A stretch of 59,484 bases of DNA, the filler included, from Jimgerdemannia flammicorona (Eukaryota), in the NCBI GenBank assembly GCA_003990765.1. It is 3 parts of 3 records of this genome, joined end to end, with 100 filler letters (N's around TTAATTAATTAA, not from the genome) between each part and the next. Parts side by side here need not be neighbours in the genome. Positions count along the whole stretch, not along the records: positions 19,868 to 39,628 come from RBNJ01001856.1; 2 more parts are not named here. One strand, 5' to 3'. This document shows positions 20,344 through 44,800 of the stretch, one piece after another (position 1 is the stretch's first letter; each line of letters begins with the position of its first letter). The translations under genes were made by a program, and so were the position numbers. The notes under the pieces were generated by a model. It ran no database searches, was not told where the DNA came from, and saw only the letters and a list, made by a program, of their open reading frames with translations.

Positions 20344-20374
<31 letters not shown>

Positions 20375-20393
20375 CGGACTCAAAAATTGACTC
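20332..20393 (-). mobile_element. Tiny poly(A) retro-insertion with a 14-bp target-site duplication
   Basis: tcaaaaattgactc at 20332-20345 and 20380-20393 flanks T27 + aacggac. Confidence 0.65.
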
Positions 20394-21764: not shown

Positions 21765-22643
21765 ATGAACGCTTCCAGGTCGCAAACAAACCACATGGGT
21801 TACCCGCGCTCCTCCATCTCCTCACACACATCTGTCATGGCTGGTACAAATCCTAAATCAGACAGCTTTAGGAAGACCCACAAATCCTCGCTTACTCATG
21901 GAAATTTATCGAGGAACAGCCTGTATATAGAGGATGCCTACGATCGCTCGACCGACCGCCTAGACATAAAGATGGAACGATACCACGCCTCTGTTATTAA
22001 CGTAGCCATCGACGTTGAAACTTCCGACAATGAGGAAAAGATCCGCAAGAAGAAGAACAAGAAATCCGCGAGGAAACCCGTCAAAGGCGACATCGACACT
22101 GTTCTCGCGCCTCCCCGACCGCTAGCGTTTCCGTTTCACAACGACTCGCTCTTTCTCCCGGTCGCGGAGACCGAGCCCGCAAAGCAGGCGCAGCTCGGCA
22201 TCAAGTCCAAGTCCAGCAGCAACACCCTTCGTTCGACGGCAGCTCCCGAGACCGTCCGAACGAACGGGACCGTCCGAACAAACGGGACCGTCCGCTCGAT
22301 CCAGTCCCTATTCCGGAGGAGTACCGACGACTCCGCCACGAGGCGCTCCTTCTCGAGCAACCACTCCCAGTTGTCCACGAACCTCAGGCAACAGCGCGAG
22401 GCCGATGCGCGTACTGAAACCCTCACCGGACGGCACCCCCTTCGCCACACGGTGTCAGCCTACGAGAAGCCGCTCCCGGCGACGCCTGCTCCTGAGAGGC
22501 ATGACGAGGAGGATCATCACCACAACGATAACATCGTCACAAAGATGTGGAGGCTGCTTAAGTCAACGAACAAGCAGTCCAAAAGCCAGAAGCACTCCGG
22601 GTGGTCGTGGTCGACCACCAAGACTTTGCTGAGGGTGTTCTAG
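21765..22643 (+). CDS. Hypothetical Ser/Thr/Arg/Lys-rich, probably disordered protein (~292 aa)
   Basis: Long open frame with C-ending codon bias. The first ATG (cacc ATG) is at 21765, and the ORF-track extension from 21498 uses a non-ATG start. Has a KIRKKKNKK basic stretch and an in-frame TVRTNG repeat. Confidence 0.65.
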   Translation: MNASRSQTNHMGYPRSSISSHTSVMAGTNPKSDSFRKTHKSSLTHGNLSRNSLYIEDAYDRSTDRLDIKMERYHASVINVAIDVETSDNEEKIRKKKNKKSARKPVKGDIDTVLAPPRPLAFPFHNDSLFLPVAETEPAKQAQLGIKSKSSSNTLRSTAAPETVRTNGTVRTNGTVRSIQSLFRRSTDDSATRRSFSSNHSQLSTNLRQQREADARTETLTGRHPLRHTVSAYEKPLPATPAPERHDEEDHHHNDNIVTKMWRLLKSTNKQSKSQKHSGWSWSTTKTLLRVF

Positions 22644-24943
22644 GCCCTGTTGACTGTTGATCCTCGTCTCCTCCACTTCCTCCCCATATGCTCCTCTCTT
22701 CTCGTCAGCGCTGCGATTCCGACATGCGTGATGAATAATGACGTTAATGAACACTCATCCCCCATTTTTTTTTTTTTTTTTTTTGTACAGTTTCCTTTCT
22801 CACATAGAATCCCCATAGATATGAGTTTTGCGCTCATTGTACATCTGCATCACATATATATATATATAATAGCAACTCTGATGATTTTGTTCTTGTACCT
22901 CGAAACGCCGTGCTCGCTCACATCCGCACATCTGTGCCAGGTAGCCTACACTTCACACCTGTGTACACATCCATTTTGCATCATGTATTCATCTCCCCTC
23001 TTCATCCACTCTCCATCTCTCATCCTCTTGTCATCTCTCATTCTCTTGTCATCTCTCATCCTCTTATCTCCGCTCTTCATCTCATCCCCTTGTCTCCATT
23101 CTCCATCTCTCATCCTCCACCTCTCTGTAATAAGTCACTCACTCCTATGCCACTTTATGGAGCTTCGCACAGCGAGCTCGATACCACCCCCTCATACCAC
23201 AATCATTCACAATTCCTCACTTTGTAGAAACATGGAGAATGCGATCTTGACTCTACAATAACGATTTTCGTGTTACTCTCCATACCGATCAACTGTCAAC
23301 TTAATTTTTTTTTTTTTTTTTTTTTTTGTTTTTCCCATCGCGGTTTGCCCATGTGCAGGCCATGCTCCTCTCGGCGTTCCGTGCATATGGGGGTCCTGAC
23401 AAATTTGCCTAGATGGCACGGTGCTTCTCGGACGTCAAAGACCTCGGCAAAGCGGGGATGATCACGTCCCTTGCCGTTTCGGGACGGAGGACCGTGGGAA
23501 TGGGGATTGGGATTTTTTTTCGGGCTTGGCTGCTGGTTTTTTGTTTGTTGCTTCCACGCAAACAAAGTTCGAAAGGGTTCACAACCCAAAATTATTTATG
23601 CATGCGGATAGAATAAGATCAGGGGCGACGACTATATTTACTTTCCGATCCCCCCCACATTGATGGACCGTGCTCCGAACCATGACGGGTATTAGTTATC
23701 GTGACTTGCGTCAATGGTAAGGTAGCACTCGGTTGTAACATTAAAAATAGATTTTTGCGGCAACAGCATACCATTTGTCTCAGTCATTATGCTATGAAAC
23801 GCTACGAACACAGGGTCCGCCTCTTTGACATGTCGAGGCTAGTGACTTTCCATTTCGAGCCCTTTCCAAAGGCGGAATATTTTCATCTTCCGCCGATAGA
23901 AAGGCGGCCCCCTATGATTTAGCAGGGGATATTTACAGGCCGAGACGAAAACGGCGATGTTGGAAAATAGAATGGTGGGCGGGAGTAGCAACCCGAAAGG
24001 ATCTTTATCGATCACTCCAACATACGCGCGCGTCCCGTCATTCGTCGGAAGTCTAGAAATCACAGAAATCACTTGAGAAGGTTGTGTTGGGTCGCGTGAG
24101 CCAGTCCCATCCCCCGGAAGCACACCATGGTTTCCGAGAAAGTGGTTGCCGGCTGAAAGCATGCGGTGTATGTAATTATATAATTACATGTCTGATCAAT
24201 GGTATGATGTTTTTGGCTGAGTTTGTGGTGCCCGAGTAGCCGAAATAGAGCGGGCTGCAGCGGCTCGATAGAACGGTGTGTTGTGAAGCACACCATTCAC
24301 GGTGCAAGGAGTTTTTCACATGTCCCCGAGACCACCGAAGTATTTGCTAAAGGGACAACAACTAGCTGGGGTTGAGCGATTGATCATACGCCATACGCCA
24401 TATCAGTAATGCTTGAGAAAATGACAAAACTCATCCGTCGAAAGCCTCGCATTTCACAGCGCAAAGCAGGGGAGTTTACAGACAAGGCTTGAGAATTTTC
24501 CTTTGAGATGATATCAATGCCAATGAAAACCCGTGTATACATTTGTATTTCTATCAGTATACAGGATTAAAACGTAATGCCCAATGCAGTGATGAATTGA
24601 AATAACTGCAAAGTATCCAGATATCTGACGATATTCATAGACCTTGGATATTCATAGACCTTGTCCACATGTCCATTGATCGAGAGGAAGCAGGTTCGAT
24701 CCTTCATGTTCAAGGTTGAAGACACTGGCCATATCCCTTGGCATGTCTGGCTAAAAAAATATCGTATCATAGAGTAGATTGTATAAAATTGCTAAAAGAA
24801 ATAAATATTTATTTTGTAAAAAAAAAAAAGGTCTGCATAATGCGACGTACCCAATGAATGATTAACATACCCAGGGATAACATACACGATTCGAACTGCC
24901 ATGTAAACCTATCATCAAATCCTTTCAGTCAATTCCACACGAT

Positions 24944-24998
24944 TCCATGAATTGATTCAATTTTTTTTATTTTTATAGTCTCCATGAATTGATTCAAT
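24944..24998 (-). mobile_element. Extremely 5'-truncated LINE insertion upstream of KPTN, with an ~18-bp TSD
   Basis: tccatgaattgattcaat at 24944-24961 and 24981-24998 flanks a T-tract + atagtc, which is the reverse complement of the gactat(A)n 3' end of the contig-3 LINEs. Confidence 0.55.
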
Positions 24999-25111
24999 GA
25001 CAATATGCCATTCACACATTCGTGCGTGCCAATGGGGTTTTCGAGTCAGGGTGGCTTAGATATTACTCGCGCTCCTAATGTACAAATCCAACTCGCTCAC
25101 CCGTGCCCGAA

Positions 25112-27834
25112 ATGCAGAACGAAAAAGAATTCTTCGACGAATGCCACTACTGCCGCTTCTCCCGTGGCAGGACGTAAGTAAACCCTTCACTTATTCAGCT
25201 TGCCGAACTTCGCAGGGTCCGCACTGACGATCCAAATCTTCCGCATCGGATGCACAAACCATAGCAACATCTACGGCCTTGCCACCGTCTCTTCCAAGAT
25301 GCCTACGTGTCTGCCATGCTCTTCGGATTTCCCGTCTCACAGATACACACATATGCCATTTCTACCTGTCGGCCCAAAAGAGGGTACGTTTGTCGGGCCT
25401 TTATTGATTCTTCTTTGTACTGTGCATTCATTAAATCACTACACGTCAACACAGTACCAAGCCTCCGCGCACCCAGACAGCACGCGCTCGTCGCATCGGC
25501 AACCGAGGTTACGGCGTTGATCTCGTCTGAGGGCTACTGGAACACGCTGACGATTCCGCTGAACCATGAGACAGGTTGGTTGATCGGGCGATGAGTTTCC
25601 AGATTGTATTTTTCGTCCATTGGCTTGCTAAACCCCCGTTCTTTGATATCTCAATAAGGCAAATTCGAGATCATCTCGATTGACGCCTTCGAACGCACCA
25701 TCGACCGCGGGCTCAATACCGTCACCAACTTCATCATCGCCGTGGCAGCCTTCCAGGTCCTTCATTCACCTCCGCACGATACCGCTTGTCTTTGATCATG
25801 ATGGCGTCCCCGGCTCACCGATGTCTGCCTTCATAATCTGCTGTATAGACTGGCGGGTCCAAGTCTAACATCGAGCTAAATGAGACTGACGACTATTGTC
25901 TGCGGATATACGGGGCGTCCACGGCACCGAGCGTGTACTTGGAGGAAACACTGTTCAACATTGGAGGTTAGTTGGCGACGCTTTCTTGTGGTCTGATCTG
26001 ATTGGCGGTGGTAATGAAACAAAAATATAATGTTCTCTCCTTCCCTCGCGCTTTTTGGTATAGGCTCATTCCAGGTCATTAAGCTAAAAGCAGCACCCAT
26101 GCATCTCTCCCACATCAAGTGAGTGCAGCACCTCTTTCGTCTCATCTTAGTATTTCGCAACCTCGCTTGCACGTCTTCACCGACATGCCTCTCATCCCCA
26201 CGCAGCATCACTCAGAACGGGCGATGCCAGACCGCGATCATCCTTTCCGCGACGGACGGGATCGTGCACGTGTATCTCGAGGTTGGTAACCGTACTTGCA
26301 GAGGTTTGGGTTTACGTGTCGAGTCGTTCGCGAGGTTGGATCATCGTTCTCATTCGTGGTGCCTCCTGCAGGAGCCTGTGACTGCCGAATTCCTTGAGGT
26401 CGATGTGGAGGAGTACTTCTCGATCCTAGGCCGTATGTCGACCGCGAGGCTCAAGTATGCGGGATGACCTTCCTTCTTGTATTGATATTCGGCGTACCTT
26501 CGGATAGTTCCCTCATTCCATACGTTATCATCAACCGCGGCAGCGTTCTGTCCCTGGACATCTTCGATGAGGAGGACACGCGCGTGGTCGTGGCCGGTAG
26601 CCAGAGCGGAGAGTTGCACATGGCGGTTTACCAAATCGACAAGATGGTCAATGGGCTGAGTGGGTGGAGTTCCGCGTTCGGTTTCGTTTGACGTGGTTTC
26701 TGTCAGAGTCGTGTGCTATTGCGTTGGTAGATTTACGGTATTCCTTGTCTATGTCGTACCGCCGATTTCTATCTCTACCACCAAACAAGTCGAAGAATCC
26801 TCCCACTCGACGAAACTCTTCACTCCGATCACCTCTGTCAAGATCTTCCGCGCCGTCCAACGCAAGGCGACCTCGGCACCGCCGACAGGTAATCCCACTT
26901 ATTCGCACATAGATCATGGCAATGTCTTGCTACACTCACTTACCTACACCCCCGTCCATCCATCTGTACATGATCCATCAACCCGAAGTAGCCACCACGT
27001 CATCCACCACCGTCCGCGTCGCCCAGCCAACAACCCCGCTCAACCTCCTCATTACCTGCGCGATTGAGCAGGCCAGCGTGTACCAGTGAGTCACATCTCA
27101 CTCCGATCAATCCTTCCTGACATCCTTCCTGCGATAACATGCCCGAACTCCACCCTCCTTCCCCCAAAAGCGACATCACAACGCGCGGCCTCTCCAGGTG
27201 CACGATCCTTCCCGAGTCGAATCAGAATGACAGCGTGTTATGCTCGCACGTGCTCGACGTCGACTGGGATGGTGAAGCAGAGCTGATTCTGGGGACGTAC
27301 GGACGGCAGTTGCTGATTTACAAGCAGAGTGAGTATTGTGATGTTGGGATCCGGGCTGCCATCTGCAGGATTAAATTGGATTTTTTGGTACTTGTCACAC
27401 ATTGAATGTCATCTTTTTCCGTCTCACCTCCGCTTAAACAGTCCCAGGAATGGACAACCAATATCAAATCCTCTGGCGACGCACGTTCGCATACCCGATC
27501 TACCGTATTGAGAGTCTGGATCTGAACCGCGACGGTCTGGACGAGCTGATCGTGACAACGACGTTCGGCGTCCACATCTTCCAGGTTAACATTTACATCC
27601 TTCCGTATTCACATATTGGTTATAGAAACTTTCGCTAATATTTGGAGAACTTATTTTCAGCCGAATCTCGAGGAGGCGCGCGTGCGGTTGGTGGAGGTGC
27701 TGCGGTACGTGGAGGAGATGAAGCTGAAGAAGCAGACGTTGTTAAAGGAGAGAGAAAGGAAGAGGGTGGAGGAAAGGAAGGAGGGAGAGGAAGGAAAGGG
27801 GAAGGAAAAGGGTGTGATGATCGAGTCAGAATGA
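25112..27834 (+). CDS. KPTN: Kaptin (KICSTOR complex subunit), multi-exon
   Basis: Spliced translation gives MQNEKEFFDECHYCRFSRGRT/NIYGLAT, FEIISIDAF, CLRIYG, TAIILSATDGIVHVY, VLSLDI..VVAGSQSG, PITSVKIF, LPESNQNDSVLCSHVLDVDWDGEAELILGTYGRQLLIYK and LWRRTFAYPIYRIESLDLNRDGLDELIVTTTFGVHIFQ. These are collinear with animal kaptin motifs as I recall them ([51 protein letters not shown]). More than 10 short GT-AG introns; internal exon limits were not all resolved. Confidence 0.92.
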
Positions 27835-28047
27835 TGGTGGCTTATGATGGTTGGTTGTGCGAGGAACGGCTTCTTTTTATGTACATAAGAGGTTGGAGTA
27901 ATGGAACCACAATTTACAAACTGAGCGCAAGAGCGATCTGCAAATATATATAGCGAGTTTTCGCGAAGATATTTTTGGGACACTAGCCCATTATACAGTC
28001 TAACATGACAATATTCCCCAACTCAAAGAACAAACTCAACCCTCATC

Positions 28048-29571
28048 TTAATTTTTCTTGCGCTTAATCAAACTCCCCGACAAAATATTAACCACGGGTT
28101 CCTGCGTCGCCTCCACCCTCTTCCTCTTTACCATACCCTGCAAATCGTTCACCTGCGCCCCAGCAGCAATGCCAATCGCACCACCCTGCGTCCCCCTCTC
28201 TCCAATTCCAGGATCGTCGGTGGTCATGACGATCGTCGGCACGGACGCCTGGACTTCAGCGCCCTGTACGAACTCGGTAAACTCCCTCGTTGACGTGACC
28301 GCCGCCTCGCGGGTCGAGAAGTCCGCGAACATAAGCTTGTTCCATGCCAGGGTGAAGCGGTCTTGGGTCAGCCCTTTGTCGCGCCAGGCCTCGCCTTGCT
28401 TGTTCTGTTCCTCTCCGTCTTTGGTGGCCTCTTTGCGCCCACCGATCTCTACCACAAAGAACCCCGCGAGCTGACCGGCTCCGCATTCCTCCCCGATTGA
28501 CATCAGCTCCCAGAACTCCTGCACCGTGATCTCTCCCTCCCCTTCCTCTTTCTCTTCCTTTCCATCCTCTGTCTTCCCCTCTTCCTCCCCTTCTCCCTCT
28601 CCTTCCTCTCCTTCCTCTTCCTCCTCTTCCTCTCCCTCTCCCTCACTCTCCCTCTTTTCACCCCCTCCCCCTTCTCCTTCCATGCCCTCCTCATTCTCCT
28701 CGTCACCACTCTCATCACGATCGGCTTCCGCAGGTTCTTCGTCATCACTCCCAACAACGCGACCGTCTCCGTAAGTGCGGAACAACCGCTGCTTAGGATC
28801 GTCCTGGAATTGCGGAATCACGTCCCGGGCGCGCGCGCTAGGGTCATGCGGATACCCGTACGTCCAGCGAACGCCATTAGTGGCAGTGGCGGTGGCGGCA
28901 GGGATTGTCTCGCGGATGGCGCTGCAAGCGACCCGTTCAGTCTCGACTCCCGGGATAAACCACCACGCCTTCATGGGCGGCCCCCCCTGTGTTGCCGACT
29001 CTCCGACGACGTTCGCGGCATCCCACGTATTAAACGGCCCTGTCAGCGCCCTCTTCCACCACCGGATGAGGCCGCGATCGTCCTGAGCGCGCTTGAGCGG
29101 ATTCTTGGAGGAGCGGGCGAAGAGGTATTGCGGCTGTGCGCGGGCAAACACGTGGATAGTCGTTGTTGGGGGAAGAGATGCAATGTAGGCGGTGATGAGG
29201 GCGCGGGTTGGGGAGGTAAGAGAGTGGTTTGTGGGACGTGGCCAATAGCCTGAGGTGTCGACCTTGGAGATGTAGGCGATGAGGGAGGGTGTTGGGGTTG
29301 TGGTGGAGTATTCGTAAGTTTCGAGACCGCAGATGAGGATTTCAGGGGAGGTGTCTGTAGATGCCTCTGCGGGGAGGTTGAGTGGTGGACGGTGCGAGAC
29401 CAGGAGGAGGCGGTGCACGAGGGTGCAGTCGGGGTCTGGGGTCGAGACGAGGGGCTTGCAGGGTTTGGGTTTGGTGGAGAGGTTGTGGATGGTGAATGTG
29501 TGGGTTCCTGGTATCCGAGAAAAGGTATCAGCCAGTGATTTTTCGAGGGTTGCGGAGTTGAGGAATGGCAT
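28048..29571 (-). CDS. RTT109: Histone H3K56 acetyltransferase Rtt109 (KAT11), intronless
   Basis: Motifs YISKVDTSG, VFARAQPQYLF..S.KNP.K..DDRGLIRWW, IPQFQDDPKQR, EFWELM...EC.AG...GF and a C-terminal VNxL...KRK. The first ATG (MPFLNS) is at 29571. Confidence 0.95.
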   Translation of the reverse strand: MPFLNSATLEKSLADTFSRIPGTHTFTIHNLSTKPKPCKPLVSTPDPDCTLVHRLLLVSHRPPLNLPAEASTDTSPEILICGLETYEYSTTTPTPSLIAYISKVDTSGYWPRPTNHSLTSPTRALITAYIASLPPTTTIHVFARAQPQYLFARSSKNPLKRAQDDRGLIRWWKRALTGPFNTWDAANVVGESATQGGPPMKAWWFIPGVETERVACSAIRETIPAATATATNGVRWTYGYPHDPSARARDVIPQFQDDPKQRLFRTYGDGRVVGSDDEEPAEADRDESGDEENEEGMEGEGGGGEKRESEGEGEEEEEEEGEEGEGEGEEEGKTEDGKEEKEEGEGEITVQEFWELMSIGEECGAGQLAGFFVVEIGGRKEATKDGEEQNKQGEAWRDKGLTQDRFTLAWNKLMFADFSTREAAVTSTREFTEFVQGAEVQASVPTIVMTTDDPGIGERGTQGGAIGIAAGAQVNDLQGMVKRKRVEATQEPVVNILSGSLIKRKKN

Positions 29572-29620
29572 GGCTTGTTTCAATGAAGCGCTTGGAGGAA
29601 CCAAGCGGCGAACTTACAAA

Positions 29621-29661
29621 ACGCGTACTCACGTGATCATTTCTCCGTTTCTGATTGGCCA
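29621..29661 (-). promoter_or_regulatory. RTT109 proximal promoter with MCB (ACGCGT), CACGTG and CCAAT-like boxes
   Basis: ACGCGT at 29621-29626, CACGTG at 29630-29635 and ATTGG at ~29654-29658, 50-90 bp upstream of the ATG. An MCB fits G1/S expression of RTT109 in yeasts. Short motifs can occur by chance. Confidence 0.45.
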
Positions 29662-30572
29662 ACATATTCCAGTTACTTTGTATAGCAACTTCTTTTGATT
29701 TCTTACTATCTGGTTAGAAAGTGTACTGACGATGACATTTGTGTGGAAGATTCTTCAATAGTACAATCAGGTCGCTTTTAATGTGGCCAAATAAATGTTT
29801 CTTGGGCCACTTTGATAGCAGATCATATGCCATGTGATTTTCGTCACTGATATTACGTCAATTAACTTGTCAGAAACTCCGATGGAACTTCTTGTCCCCC
29901 ATGATTCGAAGCCATGTGCATGCGTACTTTGTCAATGTACACAATCTTGAACATTCTGCACTGTTTGCAGAGTGCTTCTACGTATCGTATCGCTTTTTTG
30001 TCTTTTTTCACAGTAATAAAAGGAAGCACATTGATGAGTGTGTATGTCGTGCTTTGGTTAACCGGGATTATAGAAAAGAAGGTTGCAGTTGTCATCAACG
30101 GGATTCCCGATGTGTCGACGACGTTGAAGGTCAGAGGATGCAAGCACATTTCGGGTGGGTACATGGTACGGACATTATTTTCATTCCTCCACGGCACATG
30201 TCAAACGAAGTGTTGAACACGAGACGAGCAAATCGACACCCGAAGTTTATGAACAAGACTCAAAAATCAAATGTCCAAGAAAAGGAAACAAAAGAAGCAA
30301 ACAGGAGGAAAAATAAAAATAAAAAACAAAAACACAGGGTACCAGGTCAAGACGAGAAACCGCCGTATTACTAATTATCTATATACAACTCAGTACCGAA
30401 ATGATATGCAGCTCACGCTTCCTTTCCGAACGTATAGCGGGCACCACTCTTGCCAATACCAGCACTTCCTGAGGCTCCGAGATATCCAACTAAAAGAAGT
30501 ATGGAATAGAAATGGATGGAGATTAGATCTTATGCAAAAGTCCAGCCTAGCGGATCTCTACCATACCCCAGT

Positions 30573-33500
30573 TCAAAGAGGACGAAACCTACCACCATAA
30601 CTCTCCCTCCGACTCGACGGACCAGCGACATCCGCGTTCTGGCCGAAATGGGTGTCAACGATCTCATCAAAAATTTCATCTGCATCAAAGAATTCCTCGG
30701 CATCCACGAATTCATCGTCATCGGAATCGCTGTCGTCTTGTGCCTCGCCATGCTCCCCCTCCTGAAGACCCTCATCCTCCATGTAGACCGACTCCTCTTC
30801 GTCTGTCTCGTAATTGTTCTGCTGCATCTCGTCTTCCGTTTGAAGACTCAACGCCAGCGCCGCAGCCAATTCCAGTTCCTCCTGCTCCTCCACGGTCAAC
30901 ACCTCCGTGACGGGCTGCTGCTCCTGCGCCATCTCATCCTGCCTCTTGCACAACAGATTGTATGCTTCGTACACGTGCCCGACCAGCAGCGACTCAGGCA
31001 ATGTAGCAATGACATCATCGTCCTCGGATATCAAATCCTGCCACTTGCCAATGATGGGATCGTCAGGCGCCAAGTTGCTGTTGGCGCTCGTGAGGTATCG
31101 GATGACGAATTTCCTCAGTGCAGCGCAAAGTTTGTCGTATGATGTGATGTTTGTGGTTGTCATGATGAACTCCTCCGTGATGATGTCACCTGCCTCGAGT
31201 GGTATCCTGTACTTCTCCGGCACAAGGTCAAACAGGACGTTCGAGACCATATTCTCGATCGTCTCGTAGAAGGCGACGACATGGCCCAGGCGCAGCTCGC
31301 CGAGGACGGTCTTGCGGAACAGCTCGGGGTTTAGGACCGAAAGTGAAGATACTGTCTCCGCGTCTGCTGACGAGCCGGTCGCGAGCCTCGGGGCTACTAC
31401 GCTGGAGTAGCTGAGCCATTGATGACAGTAGTCCTTGATTAGCATGTTCTCGTTGACCTCCAGCTTGCCGAGCGTCCTTTCCAGATAGCACAGCAGGATC
31501 TCGAGGTCCGAGAGCAGGTCGGGTGCCATGTCGCGGAGGTTGGAATCGTTCGTAATGTCTGTGGCCAGCCTGTTATCGAGCGGAACCTGCGGGATGAGGT
31601 ACTCGATATTGCTCGTGATGTTCATGTGCTCCTGGAACATCTCGCCACGGTACGGAAACTTATCCATCTCGGTCTGAATATGCACCTTGTTGAAAACAAG
31701 CATCCTGGCAAGATACGCCTCAATTTCTGCCAGGTCATACTCGATGACCTGTCCGCGGCCATACTCTGGCCTGCGTTGAAAGTTCATAAGCAACCCCCGG
31801 TGGTATCGCGACTTGAGACAATCGTTTGCGTCGGCGATGACCTGCGAGTCGTGCAGATCCTGGAGGCGAACGGAAGTGAAGGTGGCGCGTTGCTGGGCCG
31901 GTTGTAGCTGCCCGTTGTCATCGGTGCCGCTAAAATTGACCTCGGTGGGCTGAAGGAACACCAGAGGCCGGCAGGCGTTAACCTCGATCATGCCGACGTC
32001 GGCTAGGAAGTTGTTTTGGTATTGCGCCAGCGTTTCGAGGGCGACATGCAGGTAGACAGATTCGTCCTTCGGCTCGTAGATGGCGAACACCACCTTAGTA
32101 TCTACGGTCATCTCTTCCATCGGGGGTAGGTCCTCGCAGCCGAACCTCGTGACTAGATGGCGGACCGAGTTCCAGGCATCAACGAAGTCGCTGAAGAGCA
32201 TTACGAGCTGAACGTAGAGATGGTATTCCGATTTCTTGCGCTCTTGTTCCAGGAACTTGGCAAACGTCAGTCTTCGAGCATCTTCCCGCTTGATGCGGTG
32301 ACCTAGTCGAGCCCGGATTTCTTTCGGGAACCTGATCAGGGGCAATAAATACTGGACGAGGTTGAGATTATTCCAATGGTTGAAGAACTTCCCCAGGAAG
32401 GGGAATTGCCGATGCTTTTCTGGATTCGGTTCATAGATTGTGCGCAATTCCTGCACAAACATTTCGTCGGTGATCGTAGTTCCAAGATACCTCCACAGTG
32501 TGAGATATTGCTGCTGTTGTTCCTGTTGATGTGCGGCCAGATCGAGAGTCTCCATCAACTCGTGCTCCAAGAGGTAACCATCCTGCTGGACCTTCACAAG
32601 CTTCGTCCGGTATTCCGCAATGGACTGACGCAGATTCGAGATCTCGGGCATTAGGCACGTATTCATGAAACTGGTCATCCATGCCTCCCTTAAGTCGACG
32701 GTGGAAAGCGGCGCTATTGTCTCGGCATGTTGTTTCTCCATACGAAGCAGCACGGCGTGTAGCATCACGTGCAGCATATCATCATCGCAATTGAGGATAT
32801 GTTTGAGCACGTTCCAATCCTTGCAGATGTGGTCAAGGCAATACTGTCGAGGGTCCTGGTTTGTGACTGCATTTGCGATGGCGGATGGCACGAAAGCGAA
32901 GATGGAGTGAGTGAAGAGGTGTAGCACCCTGTAGGCAGTGGGTGTTAACATGCTGTGGGTGTATTGCGGATATTCGATGCTCTCAGGGGATTCAAACACA
33001 TAACCACGCAAATCATTTCTGTTGAGCGCGTCGTCTACTGGCCGGCTGTCACTAACCCACTGGTGGTTAGTACCACCAATGGTTCGGCCACACGTTGGAC
33101 ATCTGCTTTGGATCATGGGCTTTTGGATGAGTCAGATAAAAATAATTCGGAGACGTATCAATAAAATTTACGAACAGATTACCTCCTCAACAAAGTTGAA
33201 ATATATATATATAATACGTTACCAGCCCACAGTTCGCCACGACATAAATCATGCCACACGAACACTGATACCTTCTTGTAAAGCCACTGTGAACCGTAAT
33301 ATTGTTCGAGCTTATAAGTATGTATTTGGCAGCAGCACAAAAAAAAAAAAAAGCAAACTAAGTTAAAGTTACCCTGTAGACTGCAGAACATGCAATATTG
33401 CCGTGGTTTCATCTGCTGGACAAGCAACCACGAAGTTAGGCTGAACTTGCTCCGGATTGTGTAAATAAGTTGCCAACGGCGTGCATCTTGGTTCCAAGGC

Positions 33501-36500
33501 TGCATGCAATACAATCACGTGCGCAATAACAGAGTGACGCATAATAATCTCAGGGTTGTCATCTGTCTCCGGCAGAAGCGGGGAGTTGCGATCAAGTACG
33601 AGCCCATTGAGAAGTTGCCGAGGAAAACCGGTGAGATGCGGGGTGCTTGTCAGCCAAGCCGCGAGCGCAGCTTGACTTTGGTTCCACTGGACCGACGAAG
33701 GAGTGAAGAGAAGGTTCACGGCGGCGCCGAATAATCCAAGCTTCGAGTTGAAATCTTGAAGGGAAAGCAATTGGACGATACCAGACTCGTTTCGCGTGGC
33801 CTGCAGCCGCGAGAACGCCTCATAGGCCTGCCGTGCCTGACTTGCGAAAGTGTATGGATCGAATTCCTTCCGGGTATAGTTAATTTGGTCCCACTTCACC
33901 CGCTCGTTAGCAATCCACGGAAGCACGTCTTGGAAAGGAGCGCATCGGTCCCGAAGTTCCATAGGAGAGAGACCGAACTGATCTCGCAGGGATTGAAGGA
34001 AATAGACTACGACGCGGTACGCAACTGGCGTATCGACCTCAAGGATCAGATTGATTTCTTTTACGACGTCGTCATTGCCGTGAAACACCCCGCGGCCAAA
34101 CTGTAAGGCAAGTTTTCCAAACAGCGTTTTCATAAGCGCAACTGCGCAAATGTATTTAAGCGGTTCGCGGAAATCTTGGAGGATGGTGAAGGCGTTTTCG
34201 AATAGTTGGCCCAGTTTCGAAATGCTTGTTGGTGCCAGAAATCTCTCGCAGATGACATCGCAGCAAATCACGGCGAGCTGTGAATCCAACCCCGCATTAT
34301 CAAGGCATCTTTTAATCATCTGCATTTCCGTCGAAAGACCGTTGGTAGCATTTGCTGACAAGGGCAATTCCAGCACATTAAAGAATAATTCCGGTGACGC
34401 TGAATTCTGTGCGACGAAAATCTTTTGAATCAGCGAGGCAGACTGTGGCAAGGGATTTGCAATGAAAATCTGCTCCAAAACTCCAAGATTGGCAAGTGAT
34501 TCTCGGGAAATGACATCGGGATTGCAAGTGACAATCTCAAGACACTGAATGAAGAACGTCCTCTGGCAGTTGTGCTTTTCGACACTGTCGCGAATTAGGT
34601 CGGTTTGGTCAAGCTCGCCGAAATAGGTCAAAACATCAGCGACAAATCTTTGCAGATAGTCGTTGGTTAGCTCCGCATTGTGAATGTTATCCACGAGTTC
34701 CAAGACCCCGCGGAGGGGAAGTTTGCGCGGAAATACTAAGGTTGAACAGATTTCAAAAACACATTTCAAAAGCCTCCAAGCCGCGCAATTATTATACTCG
34801 GGAATCTTGGCGCACAGTGCGAGGAGTGTGTCTGCGTTGCGTTGCCAGATGTCCGTGTCTATGGCTTCGCGAAGCTCCAAAAGAACTAGCCGTGCAACAT
34901 ATGGTGCGAGGTCGATCTTCCTATCATCCGTGGCGTGTAGCAACGACTCGAGGTCACATCCCATGTTCGACATGCAGAACTGGACGATTCTCAGCTGCGT
35001 CATGATTCTCTCTTCGTTTTCCCACCAGTGGACGTGGAACAGGACGGGATTGGCACGTCCTTCGAGTTCTTGAATTACTATCCTTGACAGGAACCTTATG
35101 TGCTCTGAGGTATTAATTCCCAGAGACATGGTCAGCAAATCGGCCAGATAGAACTCTCCGTACTTCTCGAACGCACGGTGCTCCAGCAATGGCACGAATG
35201 TGGTAACCCACCGAACAAACTGTTCGTGGTGATCCAGGGCTGTCTTTGGGGTTTCAAAGTAAGTCAGCTTGAAGCCCTCGATCCTTTCCATGAAATGGCG
35301 AGAAAATGGGAAACGGAAGATATGCAAACGACCAGGGAGACGGTATCCGTTTGGCTGAGGTTCCGTCGTCTCGATCTTGAAAATGGCATGGTCGTTGAAA
35401 ATTCTCATCCAAAGCTCGTAAAGGGCGTTGTTCTCATAATCGTCGTCGTCGTCCTCGATGAAGAACAGAGATGAGAGGGCCGACTTTTTCTCCAATGAAT
35501 AGATGAGCTTAGCGAGCGGGACACGAACGACGTGACAGATCTGTTTTTCCAAGGCGCGGGAGAACGAGTTCGAGAGCTTGAGAGTCTGTTTGTCACATGC
35601 GGTATGATATTGCCAATTAGGAGTTCCATGCTTTTCAAGCAATGTCTCCACCTGACGTTGCAAGATATGGACGAGCGGCTGACAGTAAGGAAGCTTCTCT
35701 CCTATAATACTGCAGAGATTATAGGATGATTTCAGTGCTTAAGCTAAAAATATCTTGCCTCATAGCAACCATTTAAATGATAAAAATATAAATAATTACC
35801 GGATTCTCTCGAGGGATTCCGAGCTTGGGTCATATTTGATGCACAAAAGGCACCATTGCAACTCTTTCTCAAGAATATCGCTGAACGGATACACTAACGA
35901 CTTTGCCACGGCCGGCGAGGCCACTTCATCAACGCTATCAACATTTCCTTGATGTCCATGAATAATGTTGTATATTGAGCCATCAAGGAGAGACGTCAAT
36001 GAGCGTTTGCGTGGAGTGAGCTCCTCAATAAATATTTGATACCAATCGCAAAGGAAGTCGGAGCGGTTCTTGTCGAGCATCGGCGAGCCGGCTCCGACCC
36101 CACGGTTGATGTGCATCATAATGCATGCGCACTTTTGAGACCCTTGATGGGACGTCCCCAAAGCTTTGGCAAGGTACTCTTTGCGGTAAAAATCGATGAA
36201 GAATCGGGCAAGTTTCACGCAACCTTGACTTGACGTCGCCGGATCGCACTGGAGGATGAGAAGTCCTTTGGTGGACTCGAGCCAGAAGTGCTGGATGTTA
36301 CTTTGTAGCTGCGATTCGGAATGGAATAGCTCCAACTTTTCCACTGTGACGTCTTCCCTCCCAACACATGCATGGATGTCGGTATTGATATTAGAGAAGG
36401 TCTTAATGAGCACGTTTCCAAAGTCATTTGAGCCGACTTGGTCAGAGTAAAACCAGTCAAAGAAAGATGACAGGTGCGAGTGCTTCTGGCTGTTGAAGTA

Positions 36501-39500
36501 AAAGCTGTACCACCGTGCGACCTCTTCGGGGTTTTCTACGGCCAGCGGAGATCCTGTGGACCGGACAATGGCCTCTGAGCACGCAATCTCAATTAGATTC
36601 TGCTTGCACTTCTCAAGCATTTCTGCCTTGTCCGAGACTTTCCCCCAGTTCGAATGTCGCATGACAAGACAGCGGAGGGTGTTATCACCGCAGTATCCGA
36701 CGAACATGTCATACACGCCAAACATTTTGCCATGTGCTGAGATTTTGATGGCCCATGTAGCTAGCTCCTTGACCACAGCGGAGTTTTCTTCATTCAGCAG
36801 CGAATCCCATCCGATCCTCTGCTTTTCGAAACGATTTAGGAGGGGAGGGTCGGCATGTTCCACTGCGCTTTGATCCATTATAACGATGCATCTGAAATCT
36901 TCATGTACGGGACACATAGGGTTCGCGAACTCGCCTGGATTTTGTTGATGAAAATTATTATTTTGAGTCCTCTTCAACTTTTAGTGATATAAAGAAAAAT
37001 AGTCATAGAAATTTACGAACCTAATGCAACGCGACAAAAGTTCTTTTGATCCTTCCCACTGCCGACGCTCGTGTAGTTTTTGTTCCAGAGATCATAAAGA
37101 GATCCTAAATTGAGCGGGATAAAGTACGTAGTGATGATTAAATACTCCACATTTTAGATTTCTCATTCGCAAAGGCGAAGCATTACAATCGTTACCGTAG
37201 ATGATATCCAAGTCTTTCAAAATGACAGGCCTCCCTTCTTCAACACATAGCAGGATTTTGTTGAGGACGCCGTATGCATAATTGCTGCTATCTTTATCGG
37301 CCGGGAATTGTGACCCATACATGACTTGAGGGGTTTTTCGCGTCCAGGATTCATGGGTGAAGGCGTTCGCCAAGGTGTCTATGGTTAAGTCACTGTCCCC
37401 AATGGCCATGAGGTGGCGCGCATCGGGGTCTCCAAGACTGGCACGAATGCACTCGAGAGCTTGAGGAAATCTTGGGACCTCATTCTCACCATTCAGATGT
37501 TTCCCTTTAAAAATGGCCCGTGGGAAAAACATATTGCACAACATCTCAGGACTCTCATCCCCGCCAGAAAAATTGCGCGCGACAGCCTCTTGTACCGCTG
37601 CTGGTGTCAACTCCGCGTCACCTCGACCAAGACTTTTGACCAGCGCATAATAGTCCCGCAGTCCGTGAAAATTCTGAATCCGCTGATGCTGTTGATATTT
37701 GTCGTATCCTCTGGCCAGGGAGTCGAGAGCATTCTCTGGGAGCCTCACCGTCATCAGTCCTTTTGTAGTCTCCTTGACGTCGTTAATGTCCTGTCTTGGC
37801 CTTTGAATGCGAATTGCGCGCGACATTTTGGAAGCTGGTTTTCATTAGATTAGTAAGTATATTTTAGAGGGAGTATAATTTAAAGAAGGTACATTACACC
37901 CTGACGTGCGCATCTAGCCCCTTCTGCAGAAAAGGAGAGGATATGGTGGACAAAATCTTTGAAACTTACCGTCAAGTCGCCAGTTACTTATTCCAATCAC
38001 AGCGACTTCAGGACAGGCGTCGGGACCTTGCGGCTCCAGAAGGGCATGCAGAACCTTGAGGGGGTTGAATGGGCTCGTCTCGGCGAGGCCGACTAATAGT
38101 TTTGGGGTATTCTTTATTGTATCTGATCTGGATAAAGAAAAGATAATTGTAATTATATTAACAAGAAACTTTACCTTCATCCAATAAGACCACTGCTCTT
38201 GAAGGAAACCGATCAGTATTGCTCTTCTCCTGATAACGCTCAGCTTTTTTGAAAACTTTGATAATGCCTTCAGAAGTCGATGATGTTGATCCTTGATGCG
38301 GAATGACATAAACCTGGAAAAAGCCAAAGTTCTGTCAAGGCTCCGGAAGAAAATCAATTTTTATTGACGTGCGAAACCAGTGAAAGTGCAAACCTGAGGG
38401 TGAGTTTGAAAATACTGGTCGGATGAATCAAGACCGCGTAGATTTTCCTTCACAATTTTTATCGCCAGGCTCTTTGACGCGCCAGGCGAACCGATGAGGA
38501 AAAGCGGGGTACGGGTCAGAATGCAAGCGATCATAGAGTGTACATTCTCAAGGAGGGCCTCGTTGAGCGCCGTGAATGCCGGTAGTCGCATGCGGTGCAG
38601 GTAGTCCAATTGATCCTGGCGCACAATCTGAAGAAAATCGTCAGGACTGAGTACCATACGATGTTTACTGAGGAACACGCCACTGATAACGGAGCGATAT
38701 TTAGCGCGGTCTTTTTGTTCACAAAGTCTACCCTGGTACGCAATTGAAAGAGCGAGGACGATGGCGCGGACGTCGCTGAACTTGTCTTTTTTTGGTGGAT
38801 ATTCGGAGCATTTTGCAGCGGTACAAGTTTCTCGGTGAAGTTGAGACTTTTCTTTTCGTGCAGCCGACTTGAGTTCCTTATCAAAGAAATTTGCAAACCG
38901 GATAGCCCGCTTGACGTCACGAAGGCTGACGCTATACATATCCTCAACCGAACGGATGAATCTTTGCGACTCGAACAGCAGCTCAGCAAATAGAAGGACA
39001 ATGGCAGATGGTGCCGGCGTCGCTGTTCCCGAAACATGTCGTCCCATAGTGAGGCTATTCGCCATGATATTGATGTATGCCTTCTCATCCCTTTCCTCAA
39101 GTGTGCCGTAGTCCCAAATGAGATCAACCATTGCCTCGGGAAGCGGATGGACCTGATAGACGAGCTGACTTTGTTCCTGATATCGAGTTTTCAAACCGGC
39201 GTCGTTCGTAATGGTTTTTCGCAAACGATAAGGATTGCATGCAGCCATCAGTCGAATATTTGTATGGATCTTGTGGCCCAATAACACACGATCGCATATC
39301 AGCGATGATAGCATCCGGATGTAGTTGCAAGTGTTCACTTCGTCCAAAAAACTGCCGATCATCAATGAGTATGATTAGAAAACAAACCGTGAACATGTTT
39401 TTCAACGAAAAGATGTTTTAATTTCCTTGGAGGATAGCATATACTTACACCCAAACTTCGCCACGCGTTGCACGTTCCTCTGCGTCTTCCATGAACTTGA

Positions 39501-39588
39501 TTATCCTTTCCTTTGTTATACCTGCGTGCAGGTCAAGCACAGCGAAGTCAACTTCTACCATATTAGCAAGGAATCCAATGAGGGATGT
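30573..39588 (-). CDS. RNF213: RNF213/mysterin-like giant AAA+ ATPase / RZ-finger E3 ubiquitin ligase (5' part missing at contig end)
   Basis: Ten exons join in frame via GT-AG introns (~39588-39449, 39351-38394, 38313-38175, 38092-37970, 37835-37196, 37104-37021, 36934-35800, 35709-33373, 33286-33223, 33119-30573; ~2700 aa). RNF213-type motifs in order: VFLDEVNT, AACNPYR, LVYQVHPLP..IWDYG.L, VSLRDV.R, ALLENV..PLFLIGSPGASKSLA, VVLLDEVGLAE.SP.NPLKVLH.LLE, IGISNW.LDASKMSRA, FHGLRDYY.LVK, GSQFP.D, SLYDLWN.NY, VHEDFRCIVI, PLLNRFEK, then the RZ finger. The symbol denotes homology, not proven orthology. Confidence 0.93.
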
Positions 39589-39628
39589 CTGTTCGATTAA
39601 CAAAATGCGGAAAGGGATCAAGTAAAAA

Positions 39629-39728
39629 NNNNNNNNNNNNNNNNNNNNNNNNNNNNNNNNNNNNNNNNNNNNTTAATTAATTAANNNNNNNNNNNNNNNN
39701 NNNNNNNNNNNNNNNNNNNNNNNNNNNN
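39629..39728. other. Artificial contig-joining linker (N44-TTAATTAATTAA-N44)
   Basis: Identical to 19768-19867. Confidence 0.97.
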
Positions 39729-39883
39729 TAAAACAAAATGGCATTTCATTGAGTAGGGGTGGGGGGGAGAGGGGGGTCCTCCTAGGGGAATTGGATGAGG
39801 GGTGGGCTTAATGTATTTATATGGGATAGATGGATATTAATAAAGGAAGGAGTCCAAGAGACAATAAAAAAAAAAAAAAAAAA
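39729..39883 (+). mobile_element. 3' end and poly(A) of an L1/Tx1-type LINE inserted in the Gypsy 5' LTR
   Basis: ...GPPRGIG* followed by taataaaggaaggagtccaagagacaat(A)n matches the 3' end of the LINE at ~47670-47794. Confidence 0.85.
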
Positions 39884-41320
39884 CTGTGAGTCATTATGAC
39901 CACAGTTCAGGTATCTTGAAGAATATAAAAGAAGGATCAAGGAACTGCAGTAGCAGCAACTCAACAAAACTCACTAATCTCAAAATAGCTCAAAGACTTA
40001 CTATAAATAAAATGCCTGCTACTCACCAAATCTCAAGGTCAAGAAATCACCAAGGCACCTCAGTTGAAGAAAGGATGTTCCAAGACATCAGAAGAGCTAT
40101 GAGGACCTATACAAGAAGGACTCCTAGCCTCAACCTGGGTACTGCAGATCCTTATCACTTTATTCTCTACTGCTGTGAAATGGAAATAAGGATCACTATT
40201 GCTACCAAATGCCTCTAAATGTAGCAGGAGTATAAAATAGGAAACTTTCTCTGCTGGAAGTTCCCACAGGCCAGCCTCCAAGAATTACAAGATACCACTC
40301 CCATAGATATATGACAGCTAAGAAGATTCATCAGATCTTCAGGCATGTACCATAGTCAATCCCCAACTTAGAGTATATTAAAGTCTCAGATTTCAGAGAT
40401 CTGTCAGCCTACCATATCAATGCACTAGAAGTCAGAGTGACTACAGAAGCCCAGTCTACCATCATCCTCAACAGTGATAAAGTAGAAGACTTCTGGTATC
40501 CCATCTTCCAGGACAATTCAGATCAATTCCTGCAAAGATTGATCTCAGTATTCCAAGGCCCAAGCATTCAGGTTTGACCTCTCCAAGACCCCACATTTAT
40601 TCCCTATTTTATGGAAGAGAACCTCATAGACTAGAGAGCCCCAGACCTTCTTGTTCCCACTGCTGCCAAATGTGATGATGTCATCAGTGATAATGTCACC
40701 CTGCATGATATACATATATGAAGTATATAAAATATATGATCTATATGATGAGACTGAAACATTTGCAGACCTCATCTCCTTTGAGGATAGTGATAACAAG
40801 GATGAAGTCTCTATAGTTCTGAACATTCTGCTCTAAGTTCTTTAGTTATACTGAATTATGCCAGCATCCTTTTTCTATATAACAGCTGTTCCTCTACTGG
40901 TATTCTGACCTTGTGACTCAGAATTATTCCAGCATCTTAAACCTATGCAACCATCTATACTGACCCTGGAACTTGGCAGTTTTCTATACTCCAGCATTTT
41001 TATTGGTTATTGGAATTTATATTTAGCTTTATATCTTAGCAATCATTGAATTATATTTTATATAAATACCCTTCTTATTTTCTCTGAAATAAAGTCAGTC
41101 AAGTTCACTTATATACACTTCCTTGTAAGCAATCTAAGAAATAATAAGACAGTTTAAAGATAAGAAGTTTGAGGACTATAAGACCTTAGGAAGGTACTCA
41201 AATAAGAACTTGCTTATAACAAACTTGAGTTAGTCTAAGAGATACACCTTGAAGAGAATCTGATATATTTGAAGGACTCTGTGACCACTATATGACAACT
41301 TGGTGCCCATTGGCTGGTGA
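39884..41320 (+). repeat. 5' LTR (5'-truncated, ends ...TGACA at 41297) and primer-binding site (TGGTGCCC..., ~41301-41320)
   Basis: TATATAAA at ~41059, AATAAA at ~41088, and a terminal CA followed by actTGG. Homologous to 53015-53955. Confidence 0.7.
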
Positions 41321-41893
41321 TTCAAAACAAATCCCTCACTTTCAAGCTGAAAAATGAACAACCACCACAACAACTACCCTGACTACAAGAGTCACCTCTG
41401 TAAGAATTCAAGATAAAATAGAAATGTACCCCCCCACATTCTATGGATATACTACTAAAGAGTCAATCCTGACCTTTATTGAAGACTTTGAACAATTTGC
41501 TACTGTATGAGTCTTTAGTGTGGATACACAATTGGCCCTTCTACCAGTCAGTCTCAGAGGACCTGCCAGAGATAGGTTCAATGCAGTCACTATTACTGAT
41601 GCTGATATAGCCAAACTTACCAACATGAAGGCCTTTCTCAGAATAACATACTATACTAAAGAGATCAAGTAAGCTCTCAAGGATCAACTCAATATTATTT
41701 GCCAGAGACTCAATGAAGATCCCAACTCATTCTATACCCAAATCTGCTATCAGATTGTCTTAGCTGACTATGATAACTGCCTCAAGGAACAAATAGCAGA
41801 TTCAACCTTCCTCAAAAAAGTTCACCCTGAAATTGCCCTAACAATCCAGTCTACCTCAGCTATACTGACCCTTGATCAGAAAGTGATCTTTGT

Positions 41894-44800
41894 TACCATT
41901 CAGATTACACAACCTTTAGAGGGCACTCACAACATCATTTTTGGAGAAAAGAGACTAACAATATGGCAACTGACAGGCAACCTGAGGTGTGTACTGGGCA
42001 GGGTGGCCCAAGTACTTTCGACTGGTAGCAGGTGGAGAGAGGCCCAGGCCTGGGGGGGGGTATGAGGGGGCTGCTGGTGGGTGGATGTAGAAGGGGTAGA
42101 GGTGGTGGCAGAGGCTCCAGATCTGGGAGAGTAAGCTTCATAGAGATGGTGAAGGGGAGACAGCAGGTATCAGGGCTGGAGGGCTGGCTGAGGAAGGGTA
42201 AGGAGACCAGGAAGGTGACAGTGTAGGCAGGAGCAGCCCTTGGAAGGGGGGGCAGTGGAGCTGGGGGAGTAGTGGCTGGGGAGAGTGTGACTGCTGATAG
42301 TGATAGGACTGTCAATCTGGAAAAAAATCCAGATGTGATAGCTGATGGTGAGGCTGAGCAGCTGAGGCTTAGAAGACAAGGGGACTTGGTGGATGGTGTA
42401 ACAGGTCTGGCAGTGGCCCCATTGCTCAAAAAATCAATTTCGGTATTCGCAGTTACACTGTGCTTCTGGGCCTAGTGGTGACAGTGAAAATGATGCTGGA
42501 GCTCATTGCTAAGTAGGTGGCAGGAGCTATGTCTATGAAGTTTTTGAAGGGACTGGAGGGAGTAGAGGTGGGTTTTGAGGAGGCGGCACTGCTGGAGGAG
42601 GTGGTGCTGCTGGAGGAGGCACTGAAGGTTGGATTGGTGGTTGGGGAAGTATGTGTTCTGATGGCACATTACCTGAAGTGGGATCCCAGGGTGGTCCAAC
42701 TGCTGGTGAAAGGAGTACTGATAGTGATAGTGATGGAGATGAGAAAGAGAGTTGAGGATTTCATGGCAGAATATGGAGAGGTGGTAGATATCAGATTCAG
42801 GGTCTGGGAAGGGACCTTGCTCAGAACTGGTGATGTGGATGTGAGAATTCGGCTAGCTGAGAAGGAAGCTACTGGGAAGGCAAGGGACTGGCCTTTGGTA
42901 ATAGTCTGGGGAGCAATCTTATATAAGGTGATGAGGGTGAAGGGAAGTGAGGAGGAGGAGGAGGATTTATTGGAAGCACTAGAAGAGTTGGGTAGTGCTG
43001 TAGAGAGGCAAGCAAAGGCTTGGGAGACTTTTGTGGAGTCGATGCACTTAGAGGTGGTGGATGGAAAGTGGATTCAAGTGACCAAGGAGTAGTGAGAAAG
43101 GGCTCAGAGGCATAAGAGATAGAAAGAGCTGCTGGCCAAGCTGGACAACAGACCACTGGGGGATATAAGCAAGGTGAAGGGCACAGGGGGAGCTGAAGCA
43201 AGTGTCTGGGCCAGTGAGGGGGAGGGGAAGGACAAGAAGGAGGCAGGGGAGAATAAGGAGAAGCCTAGTAATGACCCATATGCTGATGGTATGCTGGAGG
43301 TTTGGGAGGAGGACTGGGAGGGCTTCCCTACTCCTACCTCTCTTATCAGGCATGACCCGGCTTCCCAAAACAGAGTGGTCAAAGATGTGTCAATGCAAGG
43401 AGCCCAGAGGGTGCAATTTGGAGTTCTGGAGGCAGCATATGGGGGACAGGTAGTGGTGGCTGGAGAGGAGGAACTGGTGGATGTCCCAGAGGTTTGAGAT
43501 GAGTCTGCAAGCACTGGAGCTGACACCATAATGTTGGATGGAGGGAGGTTGGTGACTCTGGGGGGGAAGGAGGTGGGGAACTTACTTTGGATATGCTGGA
43601 TGATAAATAACCTGGCAGCAGAAGAGTTAGGGGAGGTAGACTTATGAGTGATGAGTGATGAGCATTGGGCAAGGATACTGCAGGGGGATGGAGTAATGAA
43701 GGCATTGAAGGTGGAAATTCTTGTGGTGTACCTGGAGGAGGAAGAGTATAAGGTAGATAAGGAGAGAGAGGCAGAGATGGCAGTCGTTGCTAGAGAGAGG
43801 GCTGAATACTGCTGGAACAAGTGTCATGGACTGCAGCTCTAGCAGGAGACATGTCTAGAATACCAAGAGGAGTTCGAGGAGAAGGCAGATGGAGAGATGA
43901 ATGAACTGCTGGCTGGATTGGAGGCTCAGAGGGCAGAAGAGAAAGAGGTGGCTGTGGAACATAATCTGGACATGGCACAGGAGGAGATGAGCATAGAGCA
44001 GTAGAGATCAATTGACAGTATAACATATTTCATTATGAACAGTATAACCAACATTTTTTCTTTAAATGTGAATGGGTTACAGGGTGCTGCTTGATGTAGG
44101 AACATTTTTACTTAGATGAAGAGATTGGAGGCCAATCTCTTCCTCTTGCAGGATGTCAGGTATAAGGATGATTCTGATAAGATAGAATGGATGAAGGAAT
44201 GGAGAGGTGTGGCGATTTAGAAGGGCAAGGTTGGAATTTTGATTTGAAAAGGCAGAGGGGAGATACAGGATGTGAGGAGCTAGGGAGAGAGACTGGTCTG
44301 GGGTGAGTGGATTCATGCAGACTGGGAGCTAGTTACCATTGGCTCCTGTTACTGCCCTGCAGTATGGGGTGAGTGGGTAGATTGGGTGAAGAGTTTACAG
44401 GAGAGTGGGATCCTTGCAGAGGCTGGGGTGGATATGCTTGGGGGAGATTTCAATATGGTTCAGGACATACTATTGAATAGAACAGATGGAGGATGAGGTG
44501 CTGAGAGCAGGAGTAGAGGACTGGTGGTATGGGAGAAAGTAGAAAGACTTAGTATGCTGGTAGATGCTAGTAGAGAGTGCTGGGGGAATAGGAGGGTTTA
44601 TACACATTGGGCAGGAGGTCTGGGAACAAGAATCGACTGGATTTTAATGGCCAGCTGCTAGGGCCTAGATGTTTGGAAGTCACTGGAGGTGGAATGGTGT
44701 CCATGGTCGGATCACTGGGGGCTTTTGGGACAGGAGTGCTTTGGGGGAAGTGGGGATGGACCTGGACATTGGTACCTCAATTTCTCTTTGTTAGATGACA

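Follow-up and report, generated by a model that had tools for sequence, protein, structure and literature searches.

A micro-exon completes the RZ finger of a giant RNF213-like gene in the fungus Jimgerdemannia flammicorona

Organization of the locus

A stretch of 59,484 nucleotides from the Endogonales fungus Jimgerdemannia flammicorona (assembly GCA_003990765.1), referred to here as the window, carries on its minus strand part of a giant gene whose protein product contains an RZ finger, the zinc-binding module known from RNF213 and ZNFX1. The finger is encoded in two halves, the first of which lies in a micro-exon of 64 nucleotides. The window is made up of three parts (positions 1-19767, 19868-39628 and 39729-59484), the middle one being a contig of 19761 bp, and features on different parts are not necessarily adjacent in the genome; the N spacers between them, at 19768-19867 and 39629-39728, are pairs of 44-base N runs. 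In the direction of transcription, the gene shows the following organization:

39629..39728, no strand: N spacer, at which the gene is cut inside its AAA core, about 1970 N-terminal residues lying elsewhere
37019..39591, minus strand: further upstream exons encoding the AAA core, absent from the deposited protein P0003 and placed by tblastn of residues 1970-2659 of the Endogone protein P0004
33373..36917, minus strand: exons upstream of the finger that are part of P0003, at the position of the E3 ubiquitin ligase module of RNF213; no Pfam family and no RING
near 35739-35795, minus strand: short intron within the 33373..36917 exons
33373, minus strand: 3' end of the upstream exon, followed by GTAACT as read from the sequence
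33287..33372, minus strand: intron 1, 86 nucleotides, GT..AG with a T-run; skipped in the contigs of runs X1 and X2
33223..33286, minus strand: micro-exon, 64 nucleotides, followed by GTAACG; residues 1153-1173 of P0003, first half of the RZ finger
33120..33222, minus strand: intron 2, 103 nucleotides, GT..AG and AT-rich; skipped in the contigs of runs X1, X2 and X4
33045..33119, minus strand: second half of the RZ finger, matching PF20173 and aligned to the mouse RNF213 finger
30594..33044, minus strand: C-terminal domain (CTD) with RNF213 CTD homology, then an acidic tail; exon limits by tblastn of P0003
30416..30490, minus strand: last coding exon, residues 2016-2040 of P0003, by the deposited model and tblastn only

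A database entry 100% identical to the predicted product, the hypothetical protein BC938DRAFT_474617 of J. flammicorona (P0003, 2040 residues), holds exactly the same double splice, and the Pfam family PF20173 (ZnF_RZ-type) is already precomputed for it. By tblastn, its residues 1153-1173 fall on 33285..33223 and its residues 1174-2015 on 33119..30594. The initial annotation had described the motif as invisible and had warned that gene predictors could lose the exon. The motif is indeed absent from a plain list of open reading frames, but the deposited model has both the splice and the PF20173 match, and the feared loss of the exon did not occur in this gene. The micro-exon gene itself is an ordinary expressed gene, already in the public annotation. 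What the deposited model leaves out is found further upstream, since P0003 starts at 36917 and the exons with the AAA core lie beyond that point. The full-length template for these was the near-complete ortholog P0004, a hypothetical protein of Endogone sp. FLAS-F59071 (BC937DRAFT_92153, 4685 residues), whose residues 1-1969 found no match upstream in the window.

Splicing and expression of the micro-exon

The lengths of 64, 86 and 103 nucleotides and the GT..AG borders of both introns were reproduced on recomputation. Intron 1 interrupts a glycine codon, two bases of which stand in the upstream exon, while the micro-exon supplies the third base and 21 further codons. Among the possible forms of the mRNA in this region, the double-spliced one is the sole form with an open frame: retention of intron 1 leads to an immediate stop and retention of intron 2 to a stop after 11 codons.

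Transcript evidence was taken from four sequencing runs (X1-X4) out of a listing of 12, as assembled contigs rather than reads. X1 and X2 are runs of J. flammicorona, while X4 comes from another study, of a root metatranscriptome. The joint of 33286 to 33373 was present in two of the four runs, in a contig of 9008 nucleotides (X1) and one of 17564 nucleotides (X2), and the joint of 33119 to 33223 in three (X1, X2 and a 151-nucleotide contig of X4). Both joints are exact in the X1 and X2 contigs, with no extra letters, and because these contigs lack both introns they are transcript-derived. The micro-exon occupies positions 11765-11828 of the 17.5-kb X2 contig, which fits a protein of roughly the size of P0004. 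X3 yielded no contig spanning either joint and says nothing either way. The splicing of 33373 to 33286 and of 33223 to 33119 put forward in the initial annotation is therefore borne out by exact joints in transcript contigs, by GT..AG introns and by an unbroken frame.

The same data bear on the idea that the micro-exon is a regulated cassette, whose skipping would give either a truncated protein devoid of finger and CTD or mRNA decay. The length of 64 nucleotides is not a multiple of three and skipping places a stop two codons past the resulting 33373/33119 joint, which would make the exon an on/off switch. None of the four runs, however, contained an exon-skipped or intron-retaining contig, although contigs can hide rare forms, and in all three runs with contigs across the region the exon is included. 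We consider a regulated cassette very improbable.

Identity of the RZ finger

The two halves of the finger were recognized independently of each other. The micro-exon alone matched PF20173 at profile positions 10-26 (E 1.8e-4, 21.5 bits) and the next exon alone at positions 28-52 (E 3.7e-7, 30.1 bits); since two separate pieces of DNA match adjoining parts of one 54-position profile, the join between them is strongly supported. The spliced protein reached 55.1 bits, the Pfam gathering cut-off being 27 (E 5.6e-15, residues 1155-1198 of P0003), and the proposed identity as an RZ finger holds on both the separate halves and the spliced product. When the 88-residue finger region was compared with the PDB by phmmer, the best hits were RNF213 chains (E 0.004), aligned at the RNF213 finger cysteine to cysteine. 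The residues of interest, in P0003 numbering, are the following:

33264..33262, minus strand: C1160, predicted first zinc ligand
33258..33256, minus strand: C1162, the cysteine at +2 from the first ligand
33252..33250, minus strand: M1164, methionine at the canonical histidine ligand position
33231..33229, minus strand: C1171, putative nucleophile, aligned with mouse C4462
33101..33099, minus strand: C1180, predicted zinc ligand position
33092..33090, minus strand: C1183, predicted zinc ligand position
33065..33063, minus strand: H1192, putative general base, aligned with the histidine after the GG motif of the finger

In the Ahel 2021 preprint, the zinc of mouse RNF213 is bound by C4451, H4455, C4471 and C4474 and the nucleophile is C4462, while PMC11549300 gives the human equivalents and H4537 as the predicted general base. 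The fungal finger departs from this ligand set (C-x3-H...C-x2-C): C1160, C1180 and C1183 align, whereas the histidine at +4 is replaced by Met1164 and a cysteine stands at +2. The alignment with RNF213 thus agrees with the earlier reading of the sequence, in which the catalytic cysteine (in ANCG) and histidine (in GGTNH) were said to be retained and the ligand pair of CPxGH to be replaced by C-S-C.

The C-x-C variant among relatives

A HMMER search with the last large exon (848 residues) returned 337 relatives at E <= 0.001, and the best 150 of these 337 were used for what follows. Of these 150 proteins, 74 have a finger recognized by a hidden Markov model built from the fingers of relatives, and 64 of the 74 fingers include the first half. 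A cysteine at +2 without a histidine at +4 was found in 49 of these 64 fingers, the reverse in 13, both residues in one (P0097) and neither in one (P0068); exactly one of the two residues is hence present in 62 of the 64, and of the 50 fingers without the histidine 49 have the cysteine at +2. The nucleophilic cysteine is found in 61 of the 64 (absent from P0018, P0066 and P0102) and the final histidine in 43 of 47 complete ones, P0068 being among those without it. C-x-C is therefore not peculiar to this gene but the majority state of its clade (49/64). In a set of named proteins with 56 fingers, 54 are CxxxH, one is CxC (P0195) and one is a coral finger with an insertion.

The residue at +4 in fingers with the cysteine at +2 is tyrosine in 20, phenylalanine in 15, glutamate in seven and methionine in two (this gene and P0115), other residues occurring once or twice. 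Met1164 was considered as a zinc ligand in its own right and rejected, as methionine stands at +4 in only two of the 50 fingers with Cys+2, most of which have tyrosine or phenylalanine there. Variants of the first ligand loop were also noticed, namely a protist finger (P0056) with a histidine in place of the first cysteine ligand in addition to Cys+2, a coral finger (P0154) with a two-residue insertion, and the P0097 finger already mentioned.

These counts weigh on two alternative views of the finger. It could be a decayed, dead relic that lost zinc binding along with the histidine, leaving the protein with the sole function of an AAA machine or scaffold. The canonical histidine is indeed a methionine here, and the mutations H4509A or H4455A inactivate RNF213 according to the Ahel 2021 preprint and PMC11549300; moreover, some relatives look decayed, such as P0068, which lacks Cys+2, His+4 and the final histidine, or P0018, P0066 and P0102, which lack the nucleophile. 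Yet Cys+2, nucleophile and final histidine are retained at the frequencies given above even though the adjoining domain is only 25-35% identical, and a relic would not be expected to show such conservation; transcription and correct splicing of the gene are further points against it. A dead finger is accordingly an unlikely explanation.

Alternatively, the finger could be active without Cys1162 serving as the fourth ligand, the site being completed by water, another residue or a neighbouring domain and Cys+2 being kept in some other role, such as that of a second reactive thiol. P0097, with both Cys+2 and His+4, would fit this view, and so would C4457 of mouse RNF213, a partly conserved extra cysteine that the Ahel 2021 preprint describes as neither ligand nor catalytic; an extra cysteine in the first ligand loop need not, therefore, bind metal. 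The near mutual exclusion of Cys+2 and His+4 (62/64) speaks against it, as does the preference for tyrosine, phenylalanine and glutamate at +4 in CxC fingers, which are not usual zinc ligands. Ligand pairs one residue apart are, besides, common in zinc sites, as in the C-x-H of RING fingers. We regard a non-ligand role of Cys1162 as quite improbable, and a ligand role is better argued from the retention of Cys+2 in 49 of the 50 fingers without His+4, across very diverged proteins, and from its absence in the two CxC-clade members that do carry His+4.

Half fingers in the gene models of relatives

The 74 fingers comprise 61 whole ones, ten second halves and three first halves, that is 13 half fingers. 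Five second-half models start no more than three residues away from the match (P0005, P0033, P0076, P0091 and P0121), and in three others (P0032, P0025 and P0023) the half finger lies in the interior of a longer protein. Further half-finger models are P0009, P0118 and P0152, with P0008 and P0124 as partial cases. Several of these models start at a methionine near a conserved P-M that follows the intron position. The pattern suggests that a small exon within the finger is missed in some public models of relatives. As a practical warning, the intron in the finger seems to break the models of some relatives (13/74).

Homology to RNF213 outside the finger

Many of the relatives are proteins of 3300-4950 residues in which the match lies at the C-terminal end. 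Pfam searches on ten of these giants found ZnF_RZ-type in nine and AAA, AAA_5 or AAA_7 (dynein-related) in nine, while a weak RING was reported in one (P0150, E 0.009). A weak match to CBM_20 near the N-terminus appeared in two of the ten, just below the cut-off of 23.3 bits (P0004, 22.7; P0013, 19.7); PMC11549300 describes an N-terminal CBM20 in RNF213.

The region after the finger was examined with a profile built from 12 short relatives (A1). Against the PDB, A1 matched RNF213 chains at E 1.6e-80, its positions 2-692 covering residues 3942-4620 of 6tay_A, which is the whole CTD. A weak, sub-threshold ubiquitin-interaction motif was noted in the acidic tail (about 30837-30884, minus strand; residues 1919-1934 of P0003; E 0.17-0.46). 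Upstream, the AAA exon at 38364-39374 matched RNF213 in the PDB by phmmer at E 1.8e-31. The exons at 37019..39591 also encode the second Walker A-like motif (GSPGASKS); the paired Walker A-like motifs of Endogone P0004 mirror those of vertebrate RNF213, the first one being seen only in P0004 and lying off the contig here.

Searches with whole sequences were less productive. The complete 2040-residue P0003 gave no PDB match at E <= 1 by phmmer, whereas the finger region and the profile did reach RNF213. When a database was searched with the 848-residue exon and, for longer proteins, with A1, only the self match was returned. In the ESM Atlas, RNF213-fragment clusters appeared at 0.84, below the 0.9 line, and are a lead only.

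The gene lacks a recognizable RING. A regular expression for RING, applied 150-900 residues before the finger, matched in none of the 29 testable relatives, P0003 included, and Pfam found no RING in P0003. Of 54 CxxxH proteins, mostly named vertebrate RNF213, 52 did match the same expression, at 417-507 residues ahead of the finger, which shows that the test works.

ZNFX1 was considered as the alternative affiliation and rejected, as the AAA core and the full CTD rule out membership of the ZNFX1 type and Pfam found no helicase family. A 2025 ZNFX1 preprint describes the CTD as the part of RNF213 that binds the E2 and as missing in ZNFX1, so that its presence here places the gene with RNF213 rather than with ZNFX1. 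Judged from its sequence, the gene is an RNF213 homologue.

Phylogenetic position

Two trees were calculated, both by quick searches and with many long branches. The first covered the post-finger region in 55 of the 64 rows, nine with tails shorter than 300 residues being dropped (P0115, P0063, P0057, P0090, P0068, P0081, P0097, P0110 and P0126). The second, on the CTD, had 63 rows, namely these 55 and eight chosen named proteins (P0154, P0156, P0157, P0158, P0161, P0163, P0186 and P0195).

The CTD tree is divided by a split with 100% support in the Shimodaira-Hasegawa-like approximate likelihood ratio test (SH-aLRT), which places this gene in a sister clade and not with animal RNF213. On one side are 18 rows with His+4 (17 CxxxH and a coral protein with both residues), among them RNF213 of vertebrates, mussel and coral. 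The opposite side, with Jimgerdemannia, Endogone and one EukProt protist, has 45 rows, of which 43 are CxC; the remaining two, P0030 and P0039, sit inside the CxC clade with His+4 and without Cys+2. Only two changes of ligand state were required on the 55-row tree and three on the 63-row tree, and with so few the ligand swap is an old character of the clade. On these data the non-animal branch is a well-supported sister clade of animal RNF213 that lacks the RING and has a predicted Cys4 finger.

Neighbouring features

Downstream of the gene on the same contig, a HAT_KAT11 histone acetyltransferase domain is encoded at 28051-29613 (minus strand, E 3.8e-30). The 17.5-kb X2 contig extends some 4.6 kb beyond position 32000, and the ligase and HAT_KAT11 genes may be merged in it. 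On the third contig, a reverse transcriptase domain (RVT_1) at 55505-56179 (minus strand, E 1.1e-21) probably belongs to a retroelement.

Proposed mechanism and significance

The reading that we favour, at a probability of about 0.75, is that the expressed, split RZ finger carries a Cys4 zinc site and is the transthiolation site of a giant RNF213-like E3 belonging to a RING-less sister clade. By homology with RNF213, the ligase would be licensed when its dynein-type AAA core binds ATP, and a ubiquitin-loaded conjugating enzyme (E2) would dock on the CTD that follows the finger. Ubiquitin would then be transferred to Cys1171, and His1192 may serve as the general base for its passage to the substrate. 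Zinc is predicted to be held by C1160, C1162, C1180 and C1183, in place of the C-x3-H...C-x2-C arrangement of animal RNF213 and ZNFX1, with Cys+2 taking the place of the missing histidine ligand. The role of C1162 in binding zinc, the catalytic activity and the control by ATP are what we infer from RNF213.

Several points weigh against this reading. The geometry and the activity of the zinc site of CxC fingers are predictions from sequence, and their PF20173 scores (47-60 bits) are lower than those of the CxxxH fingers P0030, P0039 and P0150 (66-77 bits). Well-supported branches of the tree force just one change of ligand state; the events are few, and the swap is largely one old split rather than repeated covariation. 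The 789-residue upstream exon, at the position of the E3 module, gave no useful RNF213 match by phmmer against the PDB. Because the contig contains neither the first Walker A motif nor the N-terminus, ATP control is deduced from the ortholog. Finally, X1 and X2 are labelled as RNA only by guess in the records and may be the data behind the deposited model, in which case their support for the splice is not independent of that model.

For the single gene little changes, and the wider value lies in the large non-animal RNF213-like branch, which keeps the AAA core, the CTD, the nucleophilic cysteine and the base histidine, has no RING and replaces the histidine ligand with Cys+2. Such a RING-less branch is a natural experiment and offers a testable prediction on which residues the RZ fold needs; it agrees with the dispensability of the RNF213 RING for RZ-driven activity stated in PMC11549300. 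In the literature covered, mostly titles and summaries and with supplements left aside, we found no fungal RNF213 relative and no Cys4 RZ finger.

A bolder proposal, which we consider unlikely, is that an old RING-less sister lineage of RNF213 in fungi and protists, with its Cys4 finger, provides an ATP-gated, carbohydrate-targeted ligase for cell-autonomous defence. Endogonales harbour intracellular bacteria, and these could be the target there. If this were true, immunity of the RNF213 type would predate animals and the RING would be a later addition to a core of RZ finger, CTD and AAA modules.

Comparison with known systems

Among the closest known systems is the Endogone protein P0004, which is 59% identical over finger and CTD and also has a C-x-C finger, serving here as the full-length template. 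It differs in having phenylalanine at +4, where the Jimgerdemannia protein has methionine, and in being near complete, whereas the gene described here is cut by the contig end.

ZNFX1 shares an RZ finger with a catalytic cysteine and a conserved histidine. According to the 2025 preprint, however, it is a superfamily 1 (SF1) helicase with the RZ finger near the C-terminus and no CTD of the RNF213 type, in contrast to the AAA core and full CTD found here.

RNF213 (mysterin; structures 6TAX, 6TAY, 7OIK and 8S24) resembles the gene product in its giant size, its dynein-type AAA core, its RZ finger some 800 residues short of the C-terminus and the homologous CTD behind that finger, and its paired Walker A-like motifs recur in P0004; the nucleophilic cysteine and the base histidine align. 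It differs from the group of this gene in possessing a RING (matched in 0/29 relatives versus 52/54 CxxxH proteins) and in its ligand set, C-x3-H...C-x2-C as opposed to C-x-C...C-x2-C. An eLife 2020 article, moreover, describes RNF213 as a protein common to all vertebrates, whereas the gene reported here is fungal.

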